A stretch of 64,000 nucleotides of DNA. Source: an uncultured Chthonomonadaceae bacterium (GTDB lineage Bacteria; Armatimonadota; Chthonomonadetes; Chthonomonadales; Chthonomonadaceae). Shown here one piece after another: positions 3,613 to 55,236 of this stretch. A program made the translations under genes and the position numbers. Each line of letters opens with the position of its first letter. The first letter of the stretch is position 1. The stretch covers positions 352,001-416,000 of the forward strand of contig CAWIEK010000049.1 of the NCBI GenBank assembly GCA_963835065.1. The letters are read 5' to 3'. Under the pieces are notes generated by a model, which made no database searches, had not been told where the DNA came from, and worked only from the letters and a program-made list of their open reading frames with translations.

Positions 3613-3714
3613 GCCTGCAATAACGACGGGCTGAGACGCAGCGCGTTCAAGGCGGGCAGGGTTCTGGCGACATTTGTGTGGGATGGCGATGACTACCTGA
3701 TGGAGAAAAGCTGA
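3613..3714 (+). pseudogene. 3' remnant of an Rhs/YD-repeat body gene (…DGLRRSAFKAGRVLATFVWDGDDYLMEKS*)
   Basis: YD-repeat-like DGLR and WDG..L.E motifs, TGA at 3712-3714, 1 nt before the next ATG; near-copy at 6949-7041. Confidence 0.7.
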
Positions 3715-3715
3715 T

Positions 3716-4600
3716 ATGGGAACGGTCCGCTACACAGTTATAGACGGCGAAGTGATTGCCGAAAAGCGCAACGGCGTCAGAAAGCTGTACGTGCCCGACC
3801 CGCTCGGCTCGACGGTCGCGTTGCTGGACAACACGCAGGCGCAGACAGATACCTTCTCCTACTGGCCTTACGGCGAGGATGCGGGCAGAACCGGAACTAC
3901 GCCTACTCCCTTCCGGCACGTGGGAACACTCGGTTACTACTATGATAGCAGCACGAGAAGCTACGTGCGGGCCCGCGAAGTTGATAAGCAGAAGGGGCGA
4001 TGGCTGACACAAGACCCTATCGGGTTTAAAGGAGGGGACTGGAACATCTATCGCTATGCCAGGTTGATTCCAACAACTCTGATCGATCCTAGCGGATTAG
4101 ACGTTTTCATGTGTTGTGCCAAAGTTGCAGGAGTGAATGGACATTGCTTCATTTCCACAAACAAGTGTGGAGCTTACGGATTTCATCCAAATGGAGGTAA
4201 GAACTGCGGTGCTGTTGTTGGCCTTAGCGGTGGAATGGTCACTGCTGATGATAGTTATTTGCTATGGGATCCCAAGTATCCTGTCCCACCGAATCTGAAG
4301 TACTTAATAGATGATCCCAAATGGCATGGTCATTATTTGCCGGGGAAAGGGGATGAGGTGAGATGCACAAAATTGCCAAACATGGCACAACATGAGCAAG
4401 ATTTATGTTCATGTATGGAAAACTCTGCTAAGAACCCTCCAACCTTCAGTTGTTTCAACACCTGCCAAAATTGGGTCAAATCAATGCTAGATTGTGCCTG
4501 CTCAAAAAGCGGGTTTCAAATATACGAAGGAGCGGTTAGCGGCTGCTTTGACGGCACTCTTCTTTGGAAACGAGGCGGAGCACCTGACAACGTGTTCTAA
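3716..4600 (+). CDS. Short Rhs-core protein 1 with Cys-rich C-terminal domain (permuted papain-like amidase candidate)
   Basis: DPLGST, YWPYGE, GRWLTQDPIG, N.YRY and DPSG motifs; C-terminal domain has HCFI..YGF and a later NTCQNWV. Confidence 0.85.
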   Translation: MGTVRYTVIDGEVIAEKRNGVRKLYVPDPLGSTVALLDNTQAQTDTFSYWPYGEDAGRTGTTPTPFRHVGTLGYYYDSSTRSYVRAREVDKQKGRWLTQDPIGFKGGDWNIYRYARLIPTTLIDPSGLDVFMCCAKVAGVNGHCFISTNKCGAYGFHPNGGKNCGAVVGLSGGMVTADDSYLLWDPKYPVPPNLKYLIDDPKWHGHYLPGKGDEVRCTKLPNMAQHEQDLCSCMENSAKNPPTFSCFNTCQNWVKSMLDCACSKSGFQIYEGAVSGCFDGTLLWKRGGAPDNVF

Positions 4601-4627
4601 ACACGGCATTGGCATAAAATATATTAC

Positions 4628-4915
4628 ATGAATAATATAATAAAAAAATTAATATTTTTTTTAATTATAGCAATTTTATCTAGCGTTGTTATGTTGAGAT
4701 TAGCTTGTAAGTTCATTGTCACGTCGTTTTATCGCCCTATTGACGTAGAAGTTGCCATCCGAACCGGAAATATAACCTATCTACAGGACTATCTCTCGAT
4801 GGGTGGAAATCCAAATATTAAGACTGTAGGGGGGAATAGTCTTCTGCACTTAGCAAAACAATGTCACCAGATAAAAAGTGAGTACCTCCTCAAACAAGCA
4901 GGGGCACAAGAGTAA
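4628..4915 (+). CDS. Small membrane-anchored ankyrin-repeat protein, putative immunity
   Basis: N-terminal TM; GGNPNIKTVGGNSLLHLA ankyrin motif; directly follows Rhs gene 1. Confidence 0.7.
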   Translation: MNNIIKKLIFFLIIAILSSVVMLRLACKFIVTSFYRPIDVEVAIRTGNITYLQDYLSMGGNPNIKTVGGNSLLHLAKQCHQIKSEYLLKQAGAQE

Positions 4916-5309
4916 GCAATACCGTAGTTATGGCCTTGTGCTAGTGAGAACGCCGTCGAGATAGGATTTTCGATCCACAAATGCTTGTTTTTGCGAAACC
5001 GGCCTAAAATGATATAGGCATCCTAACTAGCACAAGGCTCTAAGTGGCCGGACGTAATCCACTCGTGGTTTTCCAATGTGTAGAATCTACGAGTGAACTC
5101 TGAGCACCCACTTAGTAGTCCGTCAAGGTAGGACGTAGAAATGGAAATCACGATACAGAACTGGCTCCAAGCCTCAATTCTATCCTTAGATTCTATCGTT
5201 TTGGAGTGCCAGCAGCACAATCATAATTCTAACAACAACTTTGCAGTATGTTATTTTAATATTATTCAATATATATTACTTGAATTTAATATAATGGAGC
5301 ATTGTAGAC

Positions 5310-6107
5310 ATGGCAATGAAAACGCGCTATACAGTCATAGACGGCGAAGTCATCGCAGAAAAACGTAACGGGGTACGACGGGAGTACGTCCCCGATCCAC
5401 TCGGCTCAACAGTAGCTCTGCTAGACAACACGCAGACACAGACCGACACATTCAGATACTGGCCCTATGGAGAGGTCGCCAGCAGAACCGGCACTACGCC
5501 CACGCCATTTCAGTTCGTGGGGACACTTGGTTATTATCGTGACAGTTCGAGCCGAACCTATATCCGTGCACGATATCTAACTCCCCAAACGGGAAGATGG
5601 TTGACGGAGGACCCTCTCTTCTTTGAAGGCGGTGACTACAACTGTTACAGATACGTCACCAACCAACCAACCTATCTAACGGATGCCACAGGCAAATACA
5701 TTACAATTGGTTGTAATGACCAACAAAGGAAACAGATTCGAAAGAACATGGATTACCTTTGTGAGCGTTTGAAGCATCTTTCATTGTTGCCTAGAAACTT
5801 CCCAGGTCTCGCCTGTCTAAAATCACGATGTGGCCTTGCTAGCGGAGGACACGGCGGAGTTATTAGATGTTTGAGGCGTGGTGACCCGGATTGCGGTCCT
5901 AATGATTGTGCGTTCACATGGGCACAAACACCTAAGCAAGGAATAAACCTTTGCGCGATAGCTTGGAACCCGCAACGGTGCGGATGCCTTGGTTCTACGA
6001 TTGTCCATGAATTTGTCCACTCATGTATTGGTGATCCCTCTGAGCAACACACTTATGAGTGTGAAGATATTCTCTACGGACCGAATAAACCTCCTTGTCC
6101 ATCTTAA
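5310..6107 (+). CDS. Short Rhs-core protein 2 with HExxH zinc-metallopeptidase-like C-terminal domain
   Basis: Rhs core motifs, DATG boundary, TIVHEFVH...E in the Cys-rich C-terminal domain. Confidence 0.85.
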   Translation: MAMKTRYTVIDGEVIAEKRNGVRREYVPDPLGSTVALLDNTQTQTDTFRYWPYGEVASRTGTTPTPFQFVGTLGYYRDSSSRTYIRARYLTPQTGRWLTEDPLFFEGGDYNCYRYVTNQPTYLTDATGKYITIGCNDQQRKQIRKNMDYLCERLKHLSLLPRNFPGLACLKSRCGLASGGHGGVIRCLRRGDPDCGPNDCAFTWAQTPKQGINLCAIAWNPQRCGCLGSTIVHEFVHSCIGDPSEQHTYECEDILYGPNKPPCPS

Positions 6108-6235
6108 TTAATGTACGCGACTAGCGAGAAGCGGACCTGATGCCAATGGGCTGGATAAAAAATGTAGAAAGGAAAATGCAGCCACTGCCTTCATCCAATC
6201 GGAAAACGAGGGTTTGTTGCTGCACCGAAATAGCC

Positions 6236-6736
6236 ATGAAAGCCATACGATTGATATGCCCATCATGCCTTCTAGTTGCAACTTTGTGCTGTAACTCACT
6301 TAGCCAGAACCATGGAACCCAAACACCCTCACTAACATCCATCCAAGACAATGTGCGAGAATGCGTATTCCGCTATCAAATCGCGAATTTCGGGATTTCA
6401 GATAGAGACTACAGTAAGCACTTTTTTGTGGGTAATGGTTTTGAGGCAAAGGATGATCCTTCGCCAGAAATAGTCTCGAATCTCCAGTCAAGCACCTACA
6501 GCGTTAAAGGAATTTCACAATGTAAAAGTTCGACAGGAGGCGTAATAGACGCGAAAACGAAAGAGAGAGGTCTGCTGTTTGTGGTGACGAAAATAAAATC
6601 CATTTCGGCTAAACAATTTCAGGTAAACGCACGTTTCTTTAAGAGCGGAAAGTCTGGTAACGCCGCACTTTATACTGTAAATAGCCTCAATGGTAGATGG
6701 AAGGTTGTAAAGTGCAAAATACTTGCTTTGTACTAA
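6236..6736 (+). CDS. Hypothetical exported protein, putative immunity to Rhs 2
   Basis: Signal-like N-terminus MKAIRLICPSCLLVATLCC; position after the toxin gene. Confidence 0.55.
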   Translation: MKAIRLICPSCLLVATLCCNSLSQNHGTQTPSLTSIQDNVRECVFRYQIANFGISDRDYSKHFFVGNGFEAKDDPSPEIVSNLQSSTYSVKGISQCKSSTGGVIDAKTKERGLLFVVTKIKSISAKQFQVNARFFKSGKSGNAALYTVNSLNGRWKVVKCKILALY

Positions 6737-6831
6737 TGCAACTACAATCCTGTGAAGATCAAGGCTTAGGCCATTTCGTAGGTAGGACTTGCCATGAATC
6801 AAACAGGCGTTAATTTCAATCGTATGTTTCT

Positions 6832-6954
6832 TTGCTACATTCTCCATGATGATGTTTTTATATTGCCACTTCTGCAGAATAGGTACTCTTCCAGAAAGCG
6901 GGCTAGGTGTTCGCCTTCATCAGCCGCGTTCCCTGGCACGACCAGCCCGGTGAC
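6832..6954 (+). pseudogene. Degenerate copy of the 5' end of the glycosyltransferase gene at 14850
   Basis: TGCTACATTCTCCATGATGAT (CYILHDD) and TGTTCGCCTTCATCAGCCGCGTTCCCTGGCACGACCAGCCCGGTGAC closely match 14868-14984. Confidence 0.8.
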
Positions 6955-7041
6955 GGGCTGAGACGCAGCGCGTTCGAGGCAGGCGGCGTGTTGACCACCA
7001 TGATTTGGGATGGCGACGACTATCTGATGGAGAAAAGCTGA
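6949..7041 (+). pseudogene. 3' remnant of an Rhs body gene (GDGLRRSAFEAGGVLTTMIWDGDDYLMEKS*)
   Basis: Homologous to 3613-3714; ends TGA-T-ATG. Confidence 0.75.
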
Positions 7042-7042
7042 T

Positions 7043-7939
7043 ATGGGAACGGTCCGCTACACAGTTATAGACGGCGAAGTGATTGCCGAAAAGCGCAACG
7101 GCGTCAGAAAGCTGTACGTGCCCGATCCGCTCGGCTCGACGGTGGCTCTGCTGGACAACACGCAGGCGCAAACCGACACGTTCAGCTACTGGCCGTATGG
7201 CGAAGATGCGGGCAGAACCGGAAGTACGCCCACGCCCTTCCAATACGTGGGCACGGCTGGATACTACCGAGACAGCAGCATCAGGGACTATGTACGAACC
7301 AGAACTTTAAGCACGCTACAGGGCAGATGGATCACCGAGGACCCCATTGGCTACATCGGTGGAGATTGGAACTTCTTTCGATACGTCATGGATAGTCCGA
7401 TGTCGGGAGCCGATGTGAGTGGTATGTCTAAGGATTACAAGCCGCCGTGGCTAAATCCGAGATCGCAAACCGGTCGTAAAACACGAGCCTGTCTGCACAA
7501 TGCAATATCCGAATTTTCTAAAAAATATCCCTCGTGCATGAAGGCATTCAACAGTAAATTTCCCAATCAATCTCTGTACAAGATGATGCTATGCATTATG
7601 GCCTGTGAGAACTCTGATCCTCCGAGTTCCACCAACCCCTTCAAGCCAGACCGGGGACATAAAATTGGAGACCCCGAAACGGGAATAGGTCCCTGCCGCC
7701 TAAATCCAGGGGACAAAAATAGGAATAAAAAGTACAATGACAGGGAGTATCCAAAATGGGACAAGAACTATTGTCAGAACATTCGAGCTGGCTTGGATCT
7801 GATGTGCAAGTGGGTGCAAGGAAAGCTGGATGAACCGCAAAAGGACGGCACAGTAATTATTATGCCGTCTCCATGGAACGTGATGACGGATGGTTATCCT
7901 TGCTACAGCCAGTGCATGGCCGACAAATCCGTATCGTGA
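7043..7939 (+). CDS. Short Rhs-core protein 3 with SLT/lysozyme-like C-terminal domain
   Basis: Rhs core motifs, DVSG boundary; C-terminal IMACENS, GIGPCRL and QNIRAGLDLM resemble SLT motifs I-III. Confidence 0.8.
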   Translation: MGTVRYTVIDGEVIAEKRNGVRKLYVPDPLGSTVALLDNTQAQTDTFSYWPYGEDAGRTGSTPTPFQYVGTAGYYRDSSIRDYVRTRTLSTLQGRWITEDPIGYIGGDWNFFRYVMDSPMSGADVSGMSKDYKPPWLNPRSQTGRKTRACLHNAISEFSKKYPSCMKAFNSKFPNQSLYKMMLCIMACENSDPPSSTNPFKPDRGHKIGDPETGIGPCRLNPGDKNRNKKYNDREYPKWDKNYCQNIRAGLDLMCKWVQGKLDEPQKDGTVIIMPSPWNVMTDGYPCYSQCMADKSVS

Positions 7940-8175
7940 AAAACGATTGTACCAAACAGTACAAATGTAATTTGTCGCTCAAGCTTGTTCGAGGATATTT
8001 CAAGATCTTGCGAAATAACAGGCTCTTGTGAAAGGTTTAACAGACGATTTTAGCATTTTGACAAAATTATCTTGGAGCACTTGCGTAACATGCTTGATTG
8101 CATAAGCGAGCGAGCTTAAGTAACAAGTTGGATGCACTAAAATTAGTACTCAATATCATTTGAAAGTATTCGACA

Positions 8176-9270
8176 TTGCTTATATGTAACCGGACATTAA
8201 AAAGACTGGGTATTGCTTTCACCGCTTGTATGATTACCGTATGTGCGATCCTTCCCCATGAAAAGTTATTGTTGCTCCAATCCCGCAAGATCGTTGCTGT
8301 ACCCGGCTGGGACGGTGCATATCGTCAATTGGCTTGGTCCTCTGACACCAACGTGTGGCTGGAGGGCAACGAGAACTTCTCTGGGGGAAACATTTCTCTA
8401 TTCGTCTATAACACGCGCACAGGTATTCAGAAGCCTCATGCAGTTTGGCAGAAACGCCTTCAGCAACGTCAGGATAAGTATAACACCTTCTGGATATCGC
8501 CCGATGGGGTTTGGCTGCTCTGCACCGATTACTACAAAGCTGCTATCAGCGCGACTACTGCCAGTGGCACTCCGTCGGTCTGCTGGCACAGCGCGTTGTG
8601 GGATAGCAAGAACAAAGGCCCACTCACCCGTTACCTCGGCTGGCACGGCATTCACTGGTTTCCCGATAGTCGGCACTGGGTGCAATCCGTGTTCAATCCC
8701 ACAAACGGCCAGGCAAGCTATCTTGCCGTTCGTGACGTAGGTTCACCGACTACTCTCTTGCATGTTCCTATTCCGGTCGCCTGTCAACCGCTCTTCACAG
8801 CAGAAGATTATGATACGGTGTACCTGTCATCCATGCTCCTTGTACAGGAGCAGTTCCCTTCTATTCTTTATCGTGATGCGTCTGTGCATGTAGTGACCGT
8901 GTATGAAGCTGACCTAGCCCTGGCGACGCCTCCTCGTAAGCATCGGATTACGCTTCCAGCAGAGTGGCAGGTGCAGCAGATACAACTCTCGCCGCAGGCA
9001 AGCCAACTTGCCTGGGTGGTACATACCCGGTGGGTGCTGCCGATTGTCCTCCTCATGCAGCGGATGCACATACCCGTGAATATTGCGTCCACCGAAGTAA
9101 CCTCGTTGTATATCAGTGACTTGGAGGGGCAGAATTTCCGAGAGATTGGTCATGTTCCTACGCCTCCCGAACCGAACCAGGATATAAAAGTGAAATGGAT
9201 GCCGGAGGGGAAGCAGATTAGTTTTGTGTACAAGAATGTATTGTACGCCTGCTTCGCGGGAAACCATTAA
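8176..9270 (+). CDS. Membrane-anchored TolB/WD40-like beta-propeller protein, putative immunity; paralogue of 12876-13922
   Basis: N-terminal TM; SPDG.WL, WFPDSRH, LSP, WMPEGKQISFVY motifs. Confidence 0.7.
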   Translation: MLICNRTLKRLGIAFTACMITVCAILPHEKLLLLQSRKIVAVPGWDGAYRQLAWSSDTNVWLEGNENFSGGNISLFVYNTRTGIQKPHAVWQKRLQQRQDKYNTFWISPDGVWLLCTDYYKAAISATTASGTPSVCWHSALWDSKNKGPLTRYLGWHGIHWFPDSRHWVQSVFNPTNGQASYLAVRDVGSPTTLLHVPIPVACQPLFTAEDYDTVYLSSMLLVQEQFPSILYRDASVHVVTVYEADLALATPPRKHRITLPAEWQVQQIQLSPQASQLAWVVHTRWVLPIVLLMQRMHIPVNIASTEVTSLYISDLEGQNFREIGHVPTPPEPNQDIKVKWMPEGKQISFVYKNVLYACFAGNH

Positions 9271-9354
9271 CATCATTTGTCTGACTATCCTTTCATAGAT
9301 GCGTTTAGCTAATACGTGGTCTAGCCAAGCATCTTCATTATAGGAACCTTAGTT

Positions 9355-10250
9355 ATGGGAACAGTCCGCTACACGGTCATAGATGGCGAAGTCATTGCCG
9401 AGAAGCGCAACGGCGTCAGGAAGCTCTACGTGCCCGACCCGCTTGGCTCCACGGTGGCTCTGCTGGACAACACGCAGGCGCAGACCGACACGTTCAGCTA
9501 CTGGCCTTACGGAGAGGACGCGGGCAGAACCGGAGCCACGCCAACGCCGTTCCGCTATGTGGGTCAGCTAGGCTACTATCAAGACGGTGCCAATAGAAGT
9601 TACGTACGATCACGCTATCTCAAACAGGGGACAGGCCTATGGTTGACTTAAGATCCTCTTGGATTAGGATCAGGAGACAGTAATTTCTATCGTTATATCT
9701 TCAACGATCCCATTAGCTCAACAGATCGAACGGGCTTAAGACCAGCACGTGAAGGCATTGACGTGTGTGGATCGGATCCCAAGCATAATGATCCAGGTAT
9801 CCGAAAGCCAATTGGTCCGTGTCGTGATGGCGGAACTGCTGTTTGTGTTACATGTTATGAGACAACTGCAAAAGGCGGAAATGGCATCGCACATCCGGAT
9901 GCTCCAGGCTGTGGTTGTCACCCTCGCACTCCGCGTCTAGGCGATTGCTCCATTACTCAACTCCTGGTCATCTTAAACAATGTAATCCAGGTAATGAGAT
10001 TATCTTTTCCGATTTGATGAATGGGAACTCTATGGGTGGAAAGTTACCCGGTGGAAGATGCAAAGCATGTGACGGCGGACAATATCATAGCGGCATTGAT
10101 GTGTTTGTAGGTGGGACAAAAGCACAGTGCGACAAAGCGTTCAAAAACCTTGGCTTTGCACACGGCACAAATTGGTACTGTGTCCAATGTATTGATGTAA
10201 AGTACATTGCCAATCCGCCACTTCAAACTCCACTGCCTCGAAGCACGTAA
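9355..10250 (+). pseudogene. Short Rhs-core protein 4 with 3D-domain-like C-terminus, disrupted
   Basis: In-frame TAA at 9649-9651 in WLT*DPLG (Q or E in paralogues) and a frameshift near 9955; C-terminal domain similar to that of Rhs 5. Confidence 0.8.
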
Positions 10251-10541
10251 TCTCTGTAGGGATTAGGTGGTTGTTGCTTAAAGTCATGCTTCCCCAATCT
10301 CATAGGAGTTTCTCTGCGATGGCAGGAACTGTGTCATCGAATTTTTTAATGGCAGAAAATTTGACATCTAAGGATTGCGAATGAGATTGAAGCATTATTG
10401 TGAGCAAACGCCGCGTAAGTCATAGCCTGTATATCAGAGAAGGAGTATCACTTTGGCGACATATTCTTTACATCCAATGGTTGTTTACTCTTCAATGACC
10501 GATGATGCTCTGAAATCGGGAGTGAGAAGTTCAAGGACAGT

Positions 10542-11516
10542 GTGTTGGTTTCTAAAAATTTAATCAAAATACTGCTTTATTCTTTGATGCTTGTAGCGTC
10601 TTTCGTATTGTATACAAGTGTCAAATTCAACCAGCAGAAACTCAACAACTCACTCATTGAGAGTATTAAACGCAATGATACTTCTAGGGCTATCGCCCTT
10701 CTCAACCAAGGAGCCGATGCAAATGCTCGTGCTGCCGTTCATCCACTTGGGCTAATCTGGTGCGATATCTTTGAAAGATTTTCCTTATGGGGGCGGGCTG
10801 AAGAGAAACCCCCTTCCGCTTTAGTCATTGCCCTCAACATAAAAGTTGGAACTCGAAAGCACGACGATGCCTATGCCGACCCAGATATGATAGTCCAAGC
10901 GCTACTGAACTCTGGAGCTGATGTTCATATTCGAACTGACGACGGAGAAACGCTTATACTACTTGCGGCAGAACATCATCAGTATAAAGTAATGAAGGAG
11001 ATACTACGACATACAAATTATGGGGTAAATCAGTATGATGAAGATCATTGGACGCCCCTGATGTACGCCAGTAGAGACCAGAACAACAGCATGGTGAATT
11101 TGTTACTGACGAGAGGGGCAAGTATCAATGCGAAGGACAAGCAGGGGGATACGGCTCTTATCATCGCTAGCGAACAGTCAAAAAATTCTACAGTTGTTAC
11201 TACTTTGACGCATGAAGGTGCTGATGTTAATGCCCGCAATATCTATGGAGAAACAGCTCTCATAAAAGCAGCATGGGAAGGTGACACAAATTCTATTAGC
11301 CTACTATTGAATGCTGGCGCGGACATCAATGCTGAAGCGACAGAGACCGGAGGTGAAACCGCTTTAACACAAGCGGTTCACATGGGCCATGCTTCCGCTG
11401 TAAAACTATTGATCACTAGAGGGGCGAGCATAAACCAAAGCGGCCTACTTTCCTATGCCAAGGCGAGCCATCAAGACGACATCTTTGATGCTCTTCAACG
11501 AGCAGGAGCAAGATGA
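10542..11516 (+). CDS. Membrane-anchored ankyrin-repeat protein, putative immunity
   Basis: N-terminal TM; repeated G.TALI.A…GADVNA ankyrin units. Confidence 0.9.
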   Translation: MLVSKNLIKILLYSLMLVASFVLYTSVKFNQQKLNNSLIESIKRNDTSRAIALLNQGADANARAAVHPLGLIWCDIFERFSLWGRAEEKPPSALVIALNIKVGTRKHDDAYADPDMIVQALLNSGADVHIRTDDGETLILLAAEHHQYKVMKEILRHTNYGVNQYDEDHWTPLMYASRDQNNSMVNLLLTRGASINAKDKQGDTALIIASEQSKNSTVVTTLTHEGADVNARNIYGETALIKAAWEGDTNSISLLLNAGADINAEATETGGETALTQAVHMGHASAVKLLITRGASINQSGLLSYAKASHQDDIFDALQRAGAR

Positions 11517-11854
11517 AACAACAGGAATGGCTCACTTAAACGAATGACGAAGGCGCATCGCACAATGGTTTTATCCCTTTCAAGGCCTACTGCACGATAT
11601 TGCTTCAACTTGCTATGCGCCATTTGTCGGGGTATCACGTCTTGTGCCGTGCATAGCAGTTCTTTGCGGTACAGTTTCAGGTGTCCAAACTACCTCTTAT
11701 CGAGAGGGTAAGCCGATAGATTGGTTCGTGGCTAAGTATTAGTCAGGTGACCACCCGATTGCTTTTGAAGAGTATGAGCCATGTCCATCCGAATTTGCGG
11801 AGCGCTTCACGGTTGGCATAAGACCTAGCATTACAATAGTGGAGAAAAGCTGAT

Positions 11855-12691
11855 ATGGGTACAGTCCGCTATACAGTCATAGACGGCGAAGTGATCGCCG
11901 AGAAGCGCAACGGCGTCAGGAAACTGTACGTGCCCGATCCGCTTGGTTCGACGGTGGCTCTGCTGGACAACACGCAGACGCAGACCGACACGTTCAGCGA
12001 CTGGCCCTATGGCGAAGACGCGGGCAGAACTGGAAATACGTCAACCCCCTTTAGGTATGTGGGCATGTGGGGCTACTATCAAGACAGCACAACCACCTAT
12101 GTGCGAGCTCGGTACCTTTACATGCAAAAGGGAAGGTGGTTGACGCAAGATCCACTCGGGATTGATGGTGGGGATTTAAGTTTATATAGATATGCCGAGA
12201 ACGATCCACAAAACACCGCAGACCCGAGTGGTTTTCAAACGAACTTAGACGATCCCACGAAGTTCAAGTGTCCAGCAGGATACAACCCCGTCTGGATTAC
12301 TGGATATGGTGCTAACACAGGTCCCGTTCATCCACCAGGTAAGCCAGAAAGGCAAGCTCAAAAATACGACTGTGCGGTTGCAGACCCAGACAATGCGGAA
12401 CCTGTATGCCCTCAGGGGAGCCTTGTCCACATACGTGATCGAACAGATGGAAAGCGTAAGGGAAAACCTCGCTATGGAAAGCCCATTGAACTCTGCCTAG
12501 TCTGTGACACTGGTCCTGATGTGGGGCATAACGGTAGTCACCAATTACCACAGATAGATATATATGTCGGAGGAAGTAACAAAATGACGGATAGACAGCA
12601 AGATAGACGTTTAGTAAGAAGAGGCTATAAGGATGGGGGATCTTGGTATTGCTACAAATGCCTACCTGGAAAAAATTCCAAACCCAAATAA
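11855..12691 (+). CDS. Short Rhs-core protein 5 with 3D (MltA-type) domain-like C-terminus
   Basis: Rhs core motifs, DPSG boundary; C-terminal VWITGY…CAVADP…PQGSLVHI…DTG…IDIYV. Confidence 0.85.
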   Translation: MGTVRYTVIDGEVIAEKRNGVRKLYVPDPLGSTVALLDNTQTQTDTFSDWPYGEDAGRTGNTSTPFRYVGMWGYYQDSTTTYVRARYLYMQKGRWLTQDPLGIDGGDLSLYRYAENDPQNTADPSGFQTNLDDPTKFKCPAGYNPVWITGYGANTGPVHPPGKPERQAQKYDCAVADPDNAEPVCPQGSLVHIRDRTDGKRKGKPRYGKPIELCLVCDTGPDVGHNGSHQLPQIDIYVGGSNKMTDRQQDRRLVRRGYKDGGSWYCYKCLPGKNSKPK

Positions 12692-12875: not shown

Positions 12876-13922
12876 ATGACCGATGAAGTGACAGAGGGTG
12901 AGGAGACCACGATGCAAGCAGGCAGGCGTAGATTGTATTGGACTTTTGCGGTGACGCTAATAGGAATGAGCCTTGTGGCGGCTCTATTGTTTCTATCTCA
13001 TCCCCATTCTCTTTTAGGGCATGCCACTAAAATCGCAGATGTACACACATGGCAGTGCCAATCTGATGCGGTTGAGTTCTACTGGCTCTCCGATTATCAA
13101 TTGCTCTATCAGTCCGCAAGTACAACAAGCAAGTCCGGAAGCACTATACATAGTGGTACCTATTTTCTATGGAACTTACGTACCAACCATCATACCCCGC
13201 TTCCGCTTCTGACCAAGCATGTCTTTACCGTCAGGCAAAGACAGGATGAAAGGCTCTACCCTTCACCGGATGGGCAGTGGATCTATATGCTTGCAGGGCA
13301 CCATTTGCTGATGCTTTGCCGTCTGGATGGTACACATTTTCGAGAGTGGAACGACGCGAATGGAGCAGACTGGTTGCCTGATAGCAGGCATTTGGTTGTC
13401 GGAAAATGGAGTGGCTCTGTCCAACATAGCGTTGATGAATCTGAGGCTGATATCTCCCTTACAACACGCCATATAGGTCATGAGCTATCTAGTGGAGATT
13501 TAATTAAAATGCATTGGAATTCCTCTGACCCTACCAAATTGCATGTTACACTCTATGATAAAGGGACTATACTCCAAAAGAAATGGCAGAAGGATTTAAC
13601 CTGGCCTGCGTCGAGTCGGTTGGAAGGCACGGAGCTTTCTTTGCAAGGAGATCAGATTGCTTGCCTGCTGTTAGTAACGTATACACAGTCATGGCTTCGA
13701 TGGGCGAATCGTATTCTTCCACAGATACCATTGCGTTCTTCTGCCCGTTATGAGTTATGGATATGTCGAATTGACGGAACACAACGTAAGATGCTCGGCT
13801 TCATACCCGCCAAGTCGGATACCGATGAAACGCGAGAAGCAAAGCAGATCGGTTGGCTGCCTGGTGGGAAGCATCTCAGTTTGATTTATCAAGACACACT
13901 CTACACCGTTCCTACCGACTAA
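12876..13922 (+). CDS. Membrane-anchored TolB/WD40-like beta-propeller protein, putative immunity
   Basis: N-terminal TM; SPDGQWI, WLPDSRH, WLPGGKHLSLIY; paralogue of 8176-9270. Confidence 0.7.
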   Translation: MTDEVTEGEETTMQAGRRRLYWTFAVTLIGMSLVAALLFLSHPHSLLGHATKIADVHTWQCQSDAVEFYWLSDYQLLYQSASTTSKSGSTIHSGTYFLWNLRTNHHTPLPLLTKHVFTVRQRQDERLYPSPDGQWIYMLAGHHLLMLCRLDGTHFREWNDANGADWLPDSRHLVVGKWSGSVQHSVDESEADISLTTRHIGHELSSGDLIKMHWNSSDPTKLHVTLYDKGTILQKKWQKDLTWPASSRLEGTELSLQGDQIACLLLVTYTQSWLRWANRILPQIPLRSSARYELWICRIDGTQRKMLGFIPAKSDTDETREAKQIGWLPGGKHLSLIYQDTLYTVPTD

Positions 13923-14849: not shown

Positions 14850-15425
14850 ATGAGCCTGCCCTGGGTGTGCTACATTCTTCACGACGACGCTTCCTACCTT
14901 GCCGCTTCCATGCAGTCGTTTCAGTCGGCGGGCAAGATGTTCGCCTTCATCAGCCGCGTTCCCTGGCATGACCAGCCCGGCGACTGGCAAACGGCGGCGC
15001 AGATTGCCTCAGACGCGGGAGCCGAAGTCGTCTTGGCGAGTGGCGTTCCGAGTTGGAGCATCGGCAGTTCGCCTGTGCCACTCTGCGCGAGCGCGGCTGC
15101 ACCCATGCCCTCATCCCCGACGGCGACGAGATCATCGAACCCGAACTCCTCCACGCGCTGACGCAGATCGCGGCTTCGGAACTCGCCGAGCGGGTGTACG
15201 TGCAGTGGGACACCTACTGGAAAACGCCCGCCTACGTCATCCGCCCCCGCGAACCCTTCACGCCCTGCATGCTCCTCGACCTGCGCACGGCCCAACCCAC
15301 CGGCGGCAGGAACTTCGCGGGCGGCAGAAGCCTCCTCCTCGACGCGGCTTACGGGCTGGTGCATCACCTCTCCTACGTCGGCCCCGACCCTCGCATCCGC
15401 CGCAAGATCGTCACGTGGGTCCATC
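14850..15425 (+). pseudogene. GT2-like glycosyltransferase, frameshifted near 15035 and truncated near 15425
   Basis: ALIPDGDEII DxD motif and HHLSYV; one G appears missing at TTGGCGAG; protein-like sequence ends in an A-rich tract. Confidence 0.6.
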
Positions 15426-15457
15426 AGCAAAAAAGAGCCAAACAGCGCGAAACAAAC

Positions 15458-15486
15458 GAAACCTTTACCTCACTCATCCTGTCTAA
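15458..15486 (+). promoter_or_regulatory. Putative ECF-sigma promoter (AACCTTT…CCTGTCTAA), copy 1
   Basis: Same motif with identical spacing at 50728-50756. Confidence 0.5.
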
Positions 15487-15525
15487 ACATGCACACACGT
15501 CTACTATTCAAATGTTAGACACCGG

Positions 15526-15669
15526 AAGGGAGGTGCCAGTCCTATGTTTCCCCCCTCCCGTTCGCCCTGATGCTGCGGAGGCCACGACGCCTCTCTCCTA
15601 CAATCTGACACAACGAGACATCGGGCTGGAAGCGCTGCATTGCCAAGATTTCGACGATCTCTCTACATA
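15526..15669 (+). repeat. 144-bp conserved element, copy 1 (candidate sRNA or micro-ORF MFPPSRSP)
   Basis: 130/144 identical without gaps (manual count) to 50841-50984. Confidence 0.85.
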
Positions 15670-15792
15670 CCTTTTTTCTACCTATCCGTTTCCCAACGTT
15701 TGCAAAACTCCCCGTTGCAAAGGGCGGGCTTTTCGCTTGTTCAGAAAGGGTTAGATGTACAGGCCCTCAAGATTAGGCATGGTCTTCATCCT

Positions 15793-17211
15793 TCATCCTT
15801 CATCCTTCATCCTTCCAAAGAGCGCCATTCCCTGCGGCGGCAATGTCAGGCAGAGGCAGTTGGCTTCGGCTTGCAGTTCCGCGCCGCTGTCAAGCCACGA
15901 GTTCCACGCTTTGCCGCCCATCGCTTCCACGTCCAAGGTAATGCTTTGTTCCGCCCGACTGCGATTGACGGCGACCAGAACGCGCTCATTCTCATACGTG
16001 CGGATGTACGCGAAAATACCCCGGTCATTGTGAACCTGCACCGTCTGGAAATCGCCGCGCCGCAGGGCAATGTGATCCCGGCGCAGGGCCAGCAGATGCT
16101 TATAAAATTCGCGGATACTCTCGTCGCGCTTGTTTGGGTTCCACTCGAAGGCGCGGCGGCAGTCCGGGTCCTTGCCGCCTTCCAGCCCGATTTCATCCCC
16201 GTAATAAATGCACGGCGCTCCGGGGTACGTCAATTGCAGCAGAATACACTGCCGTTCGCGGTTCACATCCCCGCCGCACATCGTTCGCAGCCGTTCCGTG
16301 TCATGGCTGCCAAGCAGATTGAACATTCGATCCGTCGCCCATTGCGGATAATCCCGGCGGATTTGCGCCAGTTGATCGTCGCACTGGTGCGGCGAGATTT
16401 TGTCCAGCGCGAGGAAATCCAGCACCGCGTCCCGAAAGCGGTAGTTCATAACGGAATCAAACTCGTCGCCGCCAAGCCAGTCGCGGCCATTGTGCCAGAT
16501 TTCGCCCACGATATAAGCGTCCGGGTTGGCCGCGCGAACGACCTGCCGAAACTCTTTCCAGAATTGGTGCGGTATCTCGTTGGGAACGTCCAATCGCCAG
16601 CCGTCTATCCCCGCCGTCTTGATCCAGCGTTCGCCCACATCCAGGAGGTATTGCCGCGTTTCCGGGTTGTCCGTGTTCAGTTGGGGCAGGGACGCCACCC
16701 CGTACCACGTCCGGTAATTGGTGTTGCCCTGCTCCACGCGAATCGGGAAACTTTCGGGAAAATACCAGTTGCGAAAGCGCGACTGCTCCCCGTTTTCGCG
16801 TAAATCGCGGAATGGCTCGAAATCCACGCCGCTGTGGTTGAGTACCGCGTCCAAAATCACATGCCAGCCCCGCTCATGCGCCTTTTCCACCAGCGTCTTC
16901 AGCAAGTGCGGCGTTCCCAGGCGTGGGTCTATCAAATGATAGTCCGTTGTATCGTAGCCGTGATTGCTGCCGGACTCGAACACGGGGCTGAGATACAGCG
17001 CGTTTACGCCCAGGTCGCTCAAATAATCCAGGTTTGCAATCACGCCCGCCAGGTCGCCGCCCTGATAATCTTCTATAGTGGGAGGCGAACCCCAGGGTTG
17101 CGTGTTGGGCGGATCGTTGCCCGTATCGCCATTAGCAAAGCGGTCAAGAAAAATGTGATAGAATACAGCATCCCGCACCCAGTCGGGAGAGTGAGTTTCG
17201 TTGGTGTCCAT
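15793..17211 (-). CDS. GH13 neopullulanase/cyclomaltodextrinase-type alpha-glucosidase
   Basis: DAVLNH, GWRLDVPNE, GEIWH, GSHD, YYGDEIG, DPDCRRAF. Confidence 0.92.
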   Translation of the reverse strand: MDTNETHSPDWVRDAVFYHIFLDRFANGDTGNDPPNTQPWGSPPTIEDYQGGDLAGVIANLDYLSDLGVNALYLSPVFESGSNHGYDTTDYHLIDPRLGTPHLLKTLVEKAHERGWHVILDAVLNHSGVDFEPFRDLRENGEQSRFRNWYFPESFPIRVEQGNTNYRTWYGVASLPQLNTDNPETRQYLLDVGERWIKTAGIDGWRLDVPNEIPHQFWKEFRQVVRAANPDAYIVGEIWHNGRDWLGGDEFDSVMNYRFRDAVLDFLALDKISPHQCDDQLAQIRRDYPQWATDRMFNLLGSHDTERLRTMCGGDVNRERQCILLQLTYPGAPCIYYGDEIGLEGGKDPDCRRAFEWNPNKRDESIREFYKHLLALRRDHIALRRGDFQTVQVHNDRGIFAYIRTYENERVLVAVNRSRAEQSITLDVEAMGGKAWNSWLDSGAELQAEANCLCLTLPPQGMALFGRMKDEG

Positions 17212-21797: not shown

Positions 21798-24700
21798 TGT
21801 ATTCCTGTTCAGCGAATTTTATTTCACTCCGGTTCGGCGCAGGCGAGTTCCCTGTAATCGTCAGGCCGAACGCTCTTGCTTCCGTAAGGGTTTGTTCCAG
21901 TGTACGAGATTCTTCTTGTTGTTGCGCGGCTTGTTTACGCGCTTCTTCCACTGTAGTTCTAACGCCGTAAAGCAAGCGTTCTAATTCGCTTTGTTCTTTC
22001 AGATGCAGGGGTGATTTTATTTCTTGCCGCAGACGTTGCGCCCCTTCATAAAACTGTACCGCGAGTTCCGGTTCATTTGTGGACACGGCCATGCGCGCCC
22101 AAGATTCCAGCGCGTAGGCCAGATTGCGTCGGTCGCCTAACTGCGCAAACAATTCCGTCGCTTCCAAAAAATAAGCCGCCGCATTGCGTTGGTCGCCTTG
22201 TTCCCAGGCAATCAATCCTAATATGTTAAGCGTGATGCCCATATTGCGGCGGTCGCGCAGTTGGCGGCGCAGCATCAAGGCTTCGGTCAGCAAGTTGCGG
22301 GCGAGTTCGGGCTGCCGGTTTTTACGCGCAAGTTGTCCCAGGTTGTTCAGGGACGCGGCAATGCCCCAGGTGTCGTTCATTTCGCGGCGCAATCGCAGGC
22401 TTGCCTCATAGTATTGTTTTGCCTCCTCATAATACCCCTGATTGACCGCATTGATACCCAGGTAGCCTAATGTGCCCGCTTCGCCGGCCCGATCCCCTGC
22501 CGCCCGCGCGCCCTCAAGCGACTGTCTATACCATTGTTGCGCCCCTTCGTAATCCCCTTTATTGGCGGCAATTATGCCCCGTATTCCCAATGCTCCCGCC
22601 GCGCCATTGCCTGCACAGTTGATAGTTGATAGTTGATAGTTGATAGTGGCGCTGACATTATGAACCTTCAGCGGTTCACCGTTCAGCGCTTTCCAGATTT
22701 CCAATGCTTCGTCACACGCGGTTTCCGCTTCCGCCAACTCGCAGGCAAACACGCTCAACAACGCGAACCAGTTCCATCCATTGGCGCGGCAAGCATCGAA
22801 TTCTTGTGTTTCCGGCGCATCCAGCAGCCTGCGCAGGCGTTCCCGGCCCTCCGTAAAATACCCCCGTATCTGCCACCAGCGTCCAAGCGCGTTTGCCAGC
22901 AACAGCCCGCGCCGGCGACAATCCGCCTGCGTTTCCGCCCAATCCAGCGCATAGCGCAGGTTGCCGGTTTCCGCTTCCAGCCGTTCCAGCCACACGGATT
23001 GCCCCGGCCCGGTCAGTTCCCTTTCCGCCTGTTGCGCAACCTGCGTCATCCAATCCAGATGCCGAACGCGCATTGCCTCTTCTTCGCCCGCTTCCGCCAG
23101 CATTTCGCGCGCATACTCCCCTATCGTTTCCAGCATCCGATACCGCATCTGTCCGTTTGCCTCTTCCGCCACCACGAGAGATTTGGCGACGAGAGAACGC
23201 AGCAAACCGAATGATGAGTGATGAGTGATGAGTGATGAATGGGATTTCAATTCATCATTCATCATTCCTCGTTCATCATTGATTTGCTGCGCCGCTTCCA
23301 ACGTCCAGCCGCCTGTGAACACGCTCAGGCGGCGCAGGAGAGCGCGTTCCGGTTCCGTCAGCAAGTCTACGCTGGAAGCAATCACGGCGCGGAGGGATTG
23401 ATGGCGACGCGGGCGTGTGGAAGGCGTGTCGGTCAGCATGTCGAAACGTTGGTTCAGATGAGTGACAATCTCCTGTGGCGTCAGCATTTCGATCAGGGAC
23501 GCGGCGAGTTCCAGGGCGAGGGGCAGACCGTCCAGGCGACGGCAGATTTCTGCGACGGCAGAAACATTTTGGGGCGTCAGCGCAAAGTGATTGCTGACGG
23601 ATTGCGCCCGCGTTGTAAACAATTGCGCGGCGGGGCTGTTCGCGCTGGCGGCAAAATCAGCCGCAAAATCGGAACCGATCATTTCCGGGGAATCATCGGC
23701 GAGAACGGCCAACGGTTCCACTGCAAAAACGCTTTCGCTTATCAACCCAAGTCGCTGCCGACTGGTTGCCAGCAGATGCAGATACGGGCAAGCTCGCAGC
23801 AATTCCTGCGCTGTTGTGGCGCACTCTTGCAGGCAGGTCTCGCAATTATCCAGCACAAGCAGCATGCGCCGGGATTGCAGCGCCATGTTCAGGGCTTGTG
23901 CCAGGCTAATACCCGGTTCCGCCCGTATCTGGAAGAGGGCCGCGATGTGCTGCACAACTGGAGCCGAAGCCGTCACTGTGGACAAATCGGCAAACCAGAT
24001 GCCATCCTCAAAACTTTCCTGAAAATGCCGCTGTTGGGTGTTGGGCGTTGGGTGTTGGGTGTTGGGGCAATCCGGCAGGTTCATGCTTAAAGGCGCGGGA
24101 AGCGCAAGAGGGCTTTCCTGAAGTTCACGAGCCGCCTGTATCGCCAGGCGCGTTTTGCCCACGCCCCCCGTTCCCGCCAATGTTACCAGCCGATGCGTGA
24201 GCAGACGCGCTTTGACCTCGCGCAGCAAGTCGTCCCGTCCGATCAGGGAAGTCAGCGCGACAGGCATGTTTCCCATCGAAGCGAAGGGCAGCGCCTCGAA
24301 GGAAGACGGTGCAGAAGAATGAACGCCCTCTTTTGGCGCGAACGCGGCAGAAACATCCTGCGACTTTTCTATGCCGGATTTTGCCTGATTTTGCGCTTTA
24401 ATCGCTTGCTGACGAATGTGCCCATACGCGGCCTGCGTTGTGGCTTCCGGCGCAATGTTCCCTTCGTCAAGCAGGCGTTGCCGCAACCGGTGGTAGGTTT
24501 CCAAAGCCGCCTGCGGTTCACCCGCTTTTGCTAAGGCTTCCATGACATTGCGGGTTGCCGCTTCCCGGCACGGATCACAAGCAAGCGCGCGGCGCAAATA
24601 GGCGATTTCGCCCTGTAAATCTCCATCTACATGGGCATACGCCGCCAGCGTTTCCAATGCTTTGAGGTATGCCTGCCGCCGCGCTTCCCGCTCGCCCAAT

Positions 24701-44500: not shown

Positions 44501-44856
44501 CGCAATTTGCCCGCCGGGGGCATTTTCACTTTGCCGTCGTAGCTGAGAACATGCAGGAGGACGCTTTTTTCGGGGTCGCCGGGAACCAGCGCGGGGCCAT
44601 GCGCGTTGCCTTTGAGCAGGCCGTCCAGCGAGTCGAGGCTGAGGTCGGCGCGGGCTTTACTGCCGCTGTGGCAGCTATAGCAGTTGTTGACCAGAACCGG
44701 CCGCACCTTGCTTTCAAAGAACAACGCCTGCTGCGGCGTAATGGAAGTTGCCAGTGCCGGTTTTTCCTGCCGCGCCTGTACGCCCGTCACTCCCAACGCC
44801 ACCAACGCGCCCATGCTCCCGATGCCGATACCTGCCGTTCGTCGTATGCCTGTCAT
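41510..44856 (-). CDS. Planctomycete-type cytochrome c / DUF1549 / CBM-like / DUF1553 protein, two apparent +1 frameshifts (near 43845 and 43320)
   Basis: [59 protein letters not shown] spread over three overlapping ORFs. Confidence 0.88.
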
Positions 44857-44984
44857 GCCTTCTCCCGCCAACTGTAATCGCGCCCAAATCGTTGCTAATA
44901 CTATACCATGCGACACAATTTTACGCCGATTGTTACCGGAAAGATGAAGGAGGACAACCGCAAAACACGCAAAACAAACGAAAA
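44835..44984. repeat. About 150-bp direct repeat, copy 1 (copy 2 at 45827-45978), flanking a vapBC module
   Basis: CCGTTCGTCGTATGCCTGTCATGCCTTCTCCCGCCAACT…CAAAACAAACGAAAA in both copies. Confidence 0.85.
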
Positions 44985-45100
44985 GAAGACATCCACTCCC
45001 TTCGTTGTACTGGCAACAAACACCCCTCCAACAAGTTGGAGGGGTGTTTGGATGGGAAGATAAAGGACGTTTTCTTTCGTTCGGCAGAAGCGACTTGGCG

Positions 45101-45826: not shown

Positions 45827-45978
45827 CCGTTCGTCGTATGCCTGTCATGCCTTCTCCCGCCAACTCGTAATCGCGCCCAATCGTTACTTACTACTATACC
45901 ATGCGACACAATTTCACGCCGATTGTTACCGCAAACATGAGGAATGCCAAACCGCAAAACACACAAAACAAACGAAAA
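45827..45978. repeat. About 150-bp direct repeat, copy 2
   Basis: Matches 44835-44984. Confidence 0.85.
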
Positions 45979-46009
45979 ATGACAGCAATCTGCTTCTTGC
46001 CAGTTCTTT

Positions 46010-50756: not shown

Positions 50757-50840
50757 ATAGTACAAGTGTCTACTATACAGACCGGAAGGTTGAACGCTGG
50801 CAGTTCCTCATCAACTATCAACTATCAACTATCAACTAAG

Positions 50841-50984
50841 AAGGGAGGTGCAAAGCCTATGTTTCACCCCTCTCGTTCGCCCTGACGCTTACGAGGTCAC
50901 GACGCCTCTCTCCTACAACTTGACACAATGAGACATCGGGCTGGAAGCGCTGTATTGCCAAGATTTCGACGATCTCTCTACATA
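50841..50984 (+). repeat. 144-bp conserved element, copy 2 (micro-ORF MFHPSRSP)
   Basis: Matches 15526-15669. Confidence 0.85.
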
Positions 50985-51275
50985 TCCTTTTTTCTTTCTC
51001 TGCCTATTTTCATCCTTCATCCTTCATCCTTTGCTTGCGAAGGAGGTTGTAGGAAAGTTCTCAGTTGCCTGTTTTCTCTTGGTGTTCCTGGCGTCTTGGT
51101 GGTGAAAAGTTACTCACATTCTATTCTGCCCGGTCTGCTTTCCGTATTCGGACACGCTGTTCCTGCCTGCGTGACACACATTCTCTCGTTTTGGGACACG
51201 CTTTCGGACACAAGCCCTGCCGTAAACTGGCTGTAGGTCTCGAAACCGCATTACGCTTTACGGGAGGTGTCCCTG

Positions 51276-55134: not shown

Positions 55135-55135
55135 T

Positions 55136-55234
55136 TGTCTTGAACCATGATTTATGTGATTATTAGGATTAACATGATGAGACGTGCCACAATCATGGTA
55201 ATCATCTAAATCACATAAATCATGGTTCAAGACA
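55136..55234. repeat. Inverted repeat between convergent genes
   Basis: TGTCTTGAACCATGATTTATGTGATT … AATCACATAAATCATGGTTCAAGACA. Confidence 0.8.
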
Positions 55235-55236
55235 AA

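Follow-up and report, generated by a model that had tools for sequence, protein, structure and literature searches.

The window analysed here, a 64,000-nt stretch of the genome of an uncultured Chthonomonadaceae bacterium, contains two copies of an element, 35 kb apart, that a first-pass annotation took for a stress-induced small RNA or peptide-coding RNA. What kind of unit is this, and what might it do for the cell that carries it? Our tentative answer, held at somewhat short of an even chance, is that each copy is an RNA gene with a translated frame: a ribosome pausing at its Pro-stop would let a 3′ domain fold and bind a host protein near the locus.

The two copies in the window

The two copies largely have the parts first attributed to them. 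Positions 15526–15669 and 50841–50984 are identical without gaps at 130/144 positions, AACCTTT begins at 15460 and 50730 with CCTGTCTAAA 18 nt further on in both, and GTCTACTAT, the Shine-Dalgarno (SD) sequence AAGGGAGGTG and a T-run are all found in both copies, as is the GAGACATCG/CGATCTCTC stem, which contains one C–C mismatch. The micro-ORFs also read as described (Table 1). The motif ACCGGAAGG, listed as shared, is not family-wide and varies between copies; in copy 2 it lies ~60 nt 5′ of the SD, ahead of a heptamer-repeat insert, and leader length across copies is 20–120 nt. Two features of copy 1 had been overlooked: the hairpin 7 nt past the stop and a degenerate ISAzo13-type end on its 3′ side. 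No transposon end was recognised beside copy 2.

Table 1. Features of the two element copies in the window
Feature	Position	Strand	Basis
Copy 1 A-rich tract, promoter-upstream	15429..15457	+	Sequence; common to most copies; UP-element role likely, inferred
Copy 1 ECF-type promoter motif GAAACCTT-N-TGTCTAAA	15458..15487	+	Conserved −35 and −10 columns, spacer free
Copy 1 second GTCTAC, repeat of −10 motif	15499..15504	+	Strict form in 129/143 promoter-bearing copies
Copy 1 strong SD GGAAGGGAGGTG	15524..15535	+	Conserved columns
Copy 1 micro-ORF MFPPSRSP-stop	15544..15570	+	Frame kept 154/159; Pro-stop 159/159
Copy 1 hairpin 1 (GAGGY/GCCTC), 7 nt past stop	15578..15593	+	Spacer constancy, paired change
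Copy 1 A/C-rich single-stranded linker	15594..15614	+	Unpaired in consensus folds; 1–2 nt length variation
Copy 1 long hairpin 2, internal loops	15615..15663	+	Compensatory pairs
Copy 1 near-invariant AGCGCTGYATTGCCA inside hairpin 2	15631..15645	+	Invariant columns, 27 diverse rows
Copy 1 conserved TACATA and pyrimidine/T tail, likely 3′ end	15664..15677	+	Geometry unlike canonical terminator
Copy 1 degenerate ISAzo13-type right end	15740..15767	+	By-eye comparison with full IS end; 8/28 positions differ
Copy 2 ECF-type promoter motif GAACCTTT-N-TGTCTAAA	50729..50757	+	As copy 1
Copy 2 second GTCTAC	50768..50773	+	Sequence
Copy 2 variable leader insert, ATCAACT heptamer repeats	50781..50838	+	Sequence
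Copy 2 SD AAGGGAGGTG	50841..50850	+	Sequence
Copy 2 micro-ORF MFHPSRSP-stop	50859..50885	+	Commonest peptide, 50/159
Copy 2 hairpin 1	50893..50908	+	Covariation, folding
Copy 2 long hairpin 2	50930..50978	+	Covariation, folding
Copy 2 TACATA and T tail	50979..50996	+	Sequence

Immediately 5′ of copy 1 is a frameshifted ORF (14850–15430) that has no match in Pfam or NCBIfam; partial copies of its N-terminal region occur at two places in the window, near 13920 and 6890. The possibility that copy 1 truncates a paralogue of the ORF at 7043–7939 was rejected.

Copy number and distribution

The element is not a two-copy unit. Its own genome (G000; 8.0 Mb in 71 contigs) has 162 blastn matches to the 108-nt core, each 90–110 nt and thus near full length, and a profile search to E 1 returns the same 162 copies with none scoring below 90 bits, so that no decayed cores are seen. 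The sole clear core-less remnant is a promoter and leader of the element lying beside other repeats (G000:C54:109078). Covariance models find 13 copies in G001 and about 47 (one truncated) in G002, two genomes of the same genus, the latter 80% complete. They return no copy from a further 39 genomes in the family (0/38 with a broader model) or from 150 genomes sampled across the phylum, in searches that scored only some first-look candidates and so may miss remote homologues. The element is known from a single uncultured genus, represented by three genomes. A pattern scan of species genomes gives at least 32 loci; among the matches listed, 31 are labelled Chthonomonadaceae and one actinobacterial. 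The actinobacterial record (L113:1400–1620) holds a 5′-truncated copy at the junction of two unrelated-looking genes; it is probably a chimeric contig and possibly a case of horizontal transfer. Pattern scans of metagenome and viral contigs gave no matches to the element, nor did blastn against plasmids and phages.

An Rfam scan of the window yields no match at gathering level and a scan of six loci yields four chance-level matches (E 0.57–3.6) and no convincing family, which upholds the earlier statement that this is no recognised RNA family. A literature search, mostly confined to papers outside subscription, returned nothing describing this element. The family is real, non-random and under constraint, it belongs to none of the families tested, and its members likely constitute an undescribed RNA gene family.

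Promoter and expression

An AAC…GTCTA motif is present in 143 of 159 parsed copies, spanning 25, 26 or 27 nt in 9, 103 and 31 copies respectively, and the two boxes are conserved across copies while the spacer between them varies. AAC in the −35 and CGT in the −10 region are described as the signature of ECF promoters (PMC3426412), and the element has AAC in the −35, CGT(C) in the −10 and fixed spacing; the ECF-type promoter proposed at first sight is therefore borne out and appears to be under selection. The strict motif is found at 107 sites that belong to copies and at 41 others (16 intergenic, 10 ahead of a gene); the regulon therefore probably has fewer host genes than there are copies. 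A second GTCTA follows 10–20 nt after the first in 129 of the 143 promoter-bearing copies (strict form) and is largely missing where another promoter type occurs; at a guess, it is possibly a sigma-dependent pause element. A different promoter-like motif precedes the same core in 11/42 G002 copies and 4–5 of 13 G001 copies. One G001 subfamily (L157–L162) has the other promoter, a longer leader with an additional hairpin, and 15-codon frames starting from GTG, TTG or CTG.

The cognate sigma gene was not found among 57 sigma-region-2 matches, one of which has a loose promoter motif 431 nt upstream. A link of copies to sigma genes was rejected, with 6/57 lying within 3 kb compared to 10.8% of all genes. 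Seven of the ten host genes sharing the promoter motif were examined with Pfam, giving one hydrolase, two sub-threshold matches and nothing decisive for a stress role. Six soil RNA runs from six studies contain a small share of the element's sequence words, and in three of the four runs compared a single contig covers the core (90–100% identity); having no strand or ends, and with multi-copy DNA contamination possible, these contigs are a hint of transcription only. One of them (524 nt) extends far upstream and has a stop context without Pro.

The micro-ORF

The parser covered 159 of the 162 copies, and the remaining three are in frame by eye. The start codon is nearly invariant (A in 162, T in 162 and G in 160 copies) and lies 9–10 nt from the SD in 146/159. 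The distance from ATG to stop is 24, 27, 30 or 33 nt in 154/159 copies, with five out of frame, and the last codon is Pro in all 159, followed by TGA in 153 and TAA in 6; these are counts over copies of shared ancestry and hence not over independent events. As a baseline, 473 of 5663 genes predicted by our own crude gene caller end in Pro. Pro-ending frames also occur in 38 of the 39 parsed G002 copies (of 42) and in all seven parsed G001 copies (of 13), one G001 copy having an early stop, and in these relatives each of the four Pro codons and each of the three stops is used, the peptides ranging from MLCLIPLPP to 15-mers that start at GTG, TTG or CTG. Peptides overall are 8–15 residues long and variable, ranging from MFHPSRSP to MLCLLPLPP. 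To judge from these sequences the micro-ORF looks translated, as had been suspected, and the pattern says that the frame and the last residue count, and not the peptide sequence.

In E. coli, trans-translation is more likely where Pro precedes the stop, and the strong pairs include Pro-Pro (PMC3985003). Ser-Pro, the commonest C-terminal pair of the element (114/154), is not on the list of strongest pairs as given in that source, which counts against the reading that we favour. The absence of tmRNA, suggested by an ARAGORN run that gave none, was rejected; tmRNA and SmpB are present in all three genomes of the genus, and the lineage thus does not lack what the element might have substituted for. 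The smpB match in G002 (G002:C3:669400–669765) has an internal TGA that may be a sequencing error.

Translation does not appear to continue past the stop. The distance from the stop to a conserved 15-mer is 63, 64, 65 or 66 nt in 8, 126, 11 and 14 copies, and because it varies by 1–2 nt (33/159) no frame is kept. Variation between TGC, TGA and TGT past the stop had suggested Cys/Sec. Neither a continuation of the ATG frame (Sec or readthrough) nor a +1 frame was accepted as coding past this point, given mostly invariant third positions and 1–2 nt indels, and no recoding signal (Sec, +1 frameshift or readthrough) is indicated, no post-stop frame being conserved and TGA, TAA and TAG all occurring.

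The same parts could instead form a brake acting in trans, in which a stress-induced short mRNA from 162 copies traps ribosomes and peptidyl-tRNA-Pro, growth is held back by slowed translation (dormancy) and the copies are kept for dose. The order of SD, AUG, mini-ORF and stem-loop is that of haloarchaeal CreT, in which, as here, it seems to be the RNA and not the peptide that counts (PMC8501985), the Pro-stop is universal (159/159), and there is a precedent in overexpressed TnaC, which inhibits growth via tRNA-Pro depletion (PMC11890864). CreT, however, is described as requiring two consecutive rare codons and a CRISPR-derived CreA antitoxin (PMC8501985), whereas the element has no rare-codon pair (CCC is used 21.9 times per 1000 codons in a codon census, and three tRNA-Pro types are encoded) and no CRISPR link, none of the 74 spacers in six arrays matching it (best 14 nt). 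It has instead the Pro-stop, a second long hairpin, a near-invariant tip and up to 162 copies. The tmRNA and SmpB present would rescue stalls, and a pure dose model leaves both the spacing of the copies and the near-invariant tip of hairpin 2 unexplained, so that we regard such a brake as rather unlikely.

RNA structure

A structural alignment of 27 diverse rows (2 from the window, 13 from G001 and 12 from G002) gives a fold consisting of hairpin 1, a linker and the long hairpin 2, with 18 pairs and 97.1% of 486 cells paired. The ~92 nt 3′ of the micro-ORF thus have no frame but do have compensatory pairing. Double changes occur in 3/18 pairs (13 cells), and the fold scores higher than each of 500 shuffles and every slid control, with the caveat that related rows can partly beat shuffles without structure; the proposal of a structured RNA is supported to this extent. 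Hairpin 1 has an A-U to U-A change in 5/27 rows and starts 7 nt past the stop in 155/159 copies, which is roughly the position of the mRNA entry of a stalled ribosome. The 15 nt at the tip of hairpin 2 are the most conserved and never covary; a search of the rest of the genome for an antisense target of this 15-mer gave five one-mismatch matches, none of them notable. Single-sequence folding energies do not surpass those of shuffles in 6/6 cases (z −1.4 to +0.8), and together with the small number of covarying pairs and the relatedness of the rows this weighs against the reading favoured here.

In the predicted full transcripts of 141 copies the SD is paired with a mean probability of 0.92 (0.52 with the ORF, 0.18 with the 3′ tail), in keeping with the SD pairing first suggested. 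The basal stem of hairpin 2 has a predicted probability of 0.20 in these transcripts and 0.60 when the 5′ part is removed (157 copies), in which case hairpin 1 forms at 0.81 by the same thermodynamic prediction. A folding switch between the 5′ part and the base of hairpin 2 is thus predicted.

Predicted SD sequestration and repeated loci are also seen in type I toxin–antitoxin systems (PMC2887945), and in the element a 3′ CAT could in addition pair with the ATG. A type I toxin mRNA with a folded-back SD, the likeness drawn in the first-pass annotation, is nonetheless highly improbable: such toxins are described as short and hydrophobic with a transmembrane region (PMC2887945), the peptides of the element are variable, of 8–15 residues and lack a transmembrane stretch, no second frame is conserved downstream, and, unlike those systems, the element has no known antisense RNA.

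Transposon shells

The copies are in part packaged in the ends of two unrelated transposons. At least one ISAs1-type end (a 19-bp inverted repeat) is present at 27 copies, and 15/162 have both ends, ~460 bp apart; the 10-bp target duplications of these 15 are perfect in five, have one mismatch in three and three mismatches in one, and are unrecognisable in six. The same 19-bp ends bound full IS elements in G002 with a transposase of the ISAs1 family, and neither the transposase nor a full ISAs1 was found in the G000 assembly. IS4 was considered as the shell of the subfamily with 10-bp duplications and rejected, the ends being those of ISAs1. A further 37 copies adjoin ends of an ISAzo13 element, of which full copies are present in G000; an ISAzo13 right end lies within 330 nt downstream of 35/162 copies compared to 1/1000 random windows, and 5/162 have both ends. 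Neither type of shell is present at 98/162 copies, whose cores are intact. The full ISAzo13 elements (L058 and L059; G000:C41:162051–163415 and C53:451922–453286) are 1365 bp with a split transposase frame, and there are at least 19 miniature ISAzo13 derivatives of 82–95 bp.

The first annotation had allowed that the element might be a known IS end or gene fragment. Although IS ends flank 64/162 copies, the core is neither; it is absent from both IS elements, and the interior is thus not a neutral IS remnant. Nor is this an ordinary sRNA with a second copy, but a 162-copy family travelling in transposon shells, and the ends and duplications indicate that it was amplified at least partly as cargo of ISAs1- and ISAzo13-derived miniature transposons. 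A search of paralogous DNA in the same genome gave no empty sites. Both window copies are followed by genes whose orthologues in G002 have no copy beside them; the upstream neighbours differ, so that these sites do not count as cleanly empty.

Among known miniature transposons (MITEs), those that carry a promoter or an ORF or give a structured transcript (Correia, QMITE, BOX and RPE; PMC10969869) come closest, being intergenic and non-autonomous like the element, which also resembles MITEs in its ~460-bp units with 19-bp terminal repeats and a 10-bp target duplication. Terminal inverted repeats and duplications are found at a minority of copies, which does not include the two in the window. 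The element differs from MITEs in that the cargo is not IS-derived, occupies two unrelated shells and outlasts them, that copies exclude each other, and that it bears signs of translation and selection.

Selection and concerted evolution

In the 15 copies with both ISAs1-type ends, private changes are found at 115/1920 positions upstream (6.0%), 24/570 in the terminal repeats (4.2%) and 11/1530 in the core (0.7%), such that the core changes ~8-fold more slowly than the shell. In the same copies the columns of the promoter boxes, SD and ATG deviate in 1/210 cases, compared to 54/210 in the promoter spacer. At 49 columns invariant in the G001 and G002 rows, the 162 copies deviate in 317/7938 cases, 290 of them in two columns.

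Part of this uniformity reflects exchange between copies. The best G000 match of the flank lies within 3 kb of a copy for 14/45 G002 loci (two of them duplicates) and 5/13 G001 loci, an excess over chance in G002 with P about 0.04, and five G000–G002 pairs align unbroken from the core into more than 1.4 kb of flank. The internal-loop allele AGA is carried by 151/162 copies in G000 and 3/42 in G002; in the five aligned pairs all five G000 copies have AGA and their G002 partners CTA or ATA, and at one shared locus even the promoter type differs between species. Since copies at shared loci carry the allele of their own species, they are old and have been overwritten within species, and on this sequence evidence the family undergoes concerted evolution by gene conversion between copies. 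Because conversion can purge private changes, the low divergence of the core overstates per-copy selection, but conversion alone would not spare functional columns while neighbouring columns vary. Multicopy sibling sRNAs and rRNA operons likewise have several copies under common control, and rRNA operons evolve concertedly; compared to sibling sRNAs the element has a far higher copy number, a translated micro-ORF, transposon shells and no seed target found.

Spacing and genomic context

Copies are seldom close together. Only 4/105 gaps are shorter than 10 kb, compared to 22.5 expected when equal numbers are scattered over random intergenic regions on these contigs; 0/2000 such simulations had so few, and a control repeat family with 142 sites has 29/96 such gaps. 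Direct and inverted close pairs are both scarce. Between ISAs1-shelled copies and others there is one close gap, a tandem duplication, compared to 6.5 expected (P 0.0055); because the exclusion holds across shell types it tracks the cargo and not the transposase. G002 has 0/36 gaps below 13 kb compared to 3.4 expected (P 0.02 at this post hoc threshold and 0.055 at 10 kb). G001 has only 13 copies, with gaps above 1 Mb, and other genera have none; no regular lattice is therefore required. Supercoil domains and Mu target immunity have a similar scale, about 10 kb.

The spacing bears on a purely selfish explanation, in which the element is transcribed, loads ribosomes and folds solely to spread itself or to overwrite other copies (for example by favoured transposase access or gene conversion), with an element-encoded exclusion and no benefit to the host. 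The restriction to one genus, the differing copy numbers (13, about 47 and 162), the two shells with target duplications and the overwriting of shared-locus copies by species alleles, promoter type included, all fit such a cargo, and an exclusion below ~10 kb resembles transposition target immunity. Against it, the 98 copies with neither shell end keep promoter and core, no decayed core and no element-linked protein were found, the exclusion operates between different shell families, and the ISAs1 transposase is absent from this assembly; spread by copying of RNA is countered by a promoter that lies upstream of the likely start. We consider selfish cargo a possibility of some weight, although an unlikely one. 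Two reverse transcriptases (L163 and L164) are encoded in the genome, and no copy adjoins the retron-like one. One lies beside a cas1-like frame and a CRISPR array and the other, retron-like, beside a SWIM/BRCT-like gene, as labelled by sequence reading; the most conserved part of the element is a hairpin tip, unlike in a retron msd.

A portable leader, acting as attenuator or arrest peptide on the next gene, is very unlikely. An upstream ORF with Pro-stop and hairpins is the anatomy of tnaC-type leaders, TnaC and PepNL are short ORFs likely pausing at termination, as the element's would, with TnaC also having a Pro-stop (PMC11890864), and 62 of 161 copies have a co-oriented downstream gene. 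However, by our own gene caller the next gene is on the opposite strand in the other 99, where neighbouring genes run in tandem 60 copies lie antisense to them and 26 sense, the G001 copies have no downstream gene in common, and copy 1 faces a convergent amylase gene. The element thus differs from TnaC and PepNL in having no regulated downstream gene and a peptide that is free except for the last Pro. There is no leading-strand bias among 127 copies (58 compared to 69 on the G-rich strand, and 68 compared to 59 on the majority gene strand), in contigs whose skew is weak.

Proposed role

In the translated RNA gene that we tentatively favour, an ECF-type sigma, presumably responding to stress, would transcribe ~190–270 nt from each copy as a stand-alone RNA gene. 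A ribosome would load at the strong SD, translate 8–11 codons and likely pause at the Pro-stop, and once parked there may let the two-hairpin 3′ domain fold and shield it. The 3′ domain would be the working part, probably binding a protein and acting near its own locus; that no partner protein has been identified counts against this. Shells would decay while every copy retains its promoter, SD, frame and fold, and insertions less than ~10 kb from an existing copy, being redundant or harmful, would be lost. A bolder and, in our estimate, improbable form is that a ribosome-loaded RNA is made in cis at ~160 sites, dispersed by MITEs and kept uniform by conversion, each marking a domain of at least ~10 kb, for example as a topological barrier, or as an anchor or loading site under stress.

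It is usual for a bacterial RNA gene to exist as one copy or a few, and for miniature transposons to decay. In this family the cargo outlives shells of two kinds, and nearly all 162 copies keep their expression signals, are homogenised like rRNA operons and lie mutually distant. If the translated RNA gene is real, transposons have a route by which to amplify a functional translated RNA, and Pro-stop pausing is used outside gene leaders; the spacing would provide a direct handle on what sets ~10-kb chromosomal domains.

Other features of the window

An array of paralogous ORFs at 3625–12691 contains RHS core domains (including an RHS match for 7043–7939) interspersed with ankyrin and unknown genes, and resembles an array of polymorphic-toxin cassettes used in competition between bacteria. 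A ~150-nt non-coding unit is duplicated either side of a PIN-domain gene pair (44835–44990 and 45827–45980) and has an A-rich end like the upstream tract of the element. Intergenic heptamer tandem repeats of several types are common (for example at 15785–15816, 50811–50838 and 24036–24066), and such repeats are also expanded in the leader and tail of the element. A 101-nt inverted-repeat element with 44-nt arms (55135–55235) has many copies in G000, G001 and G002 and is another miniature repeat family.
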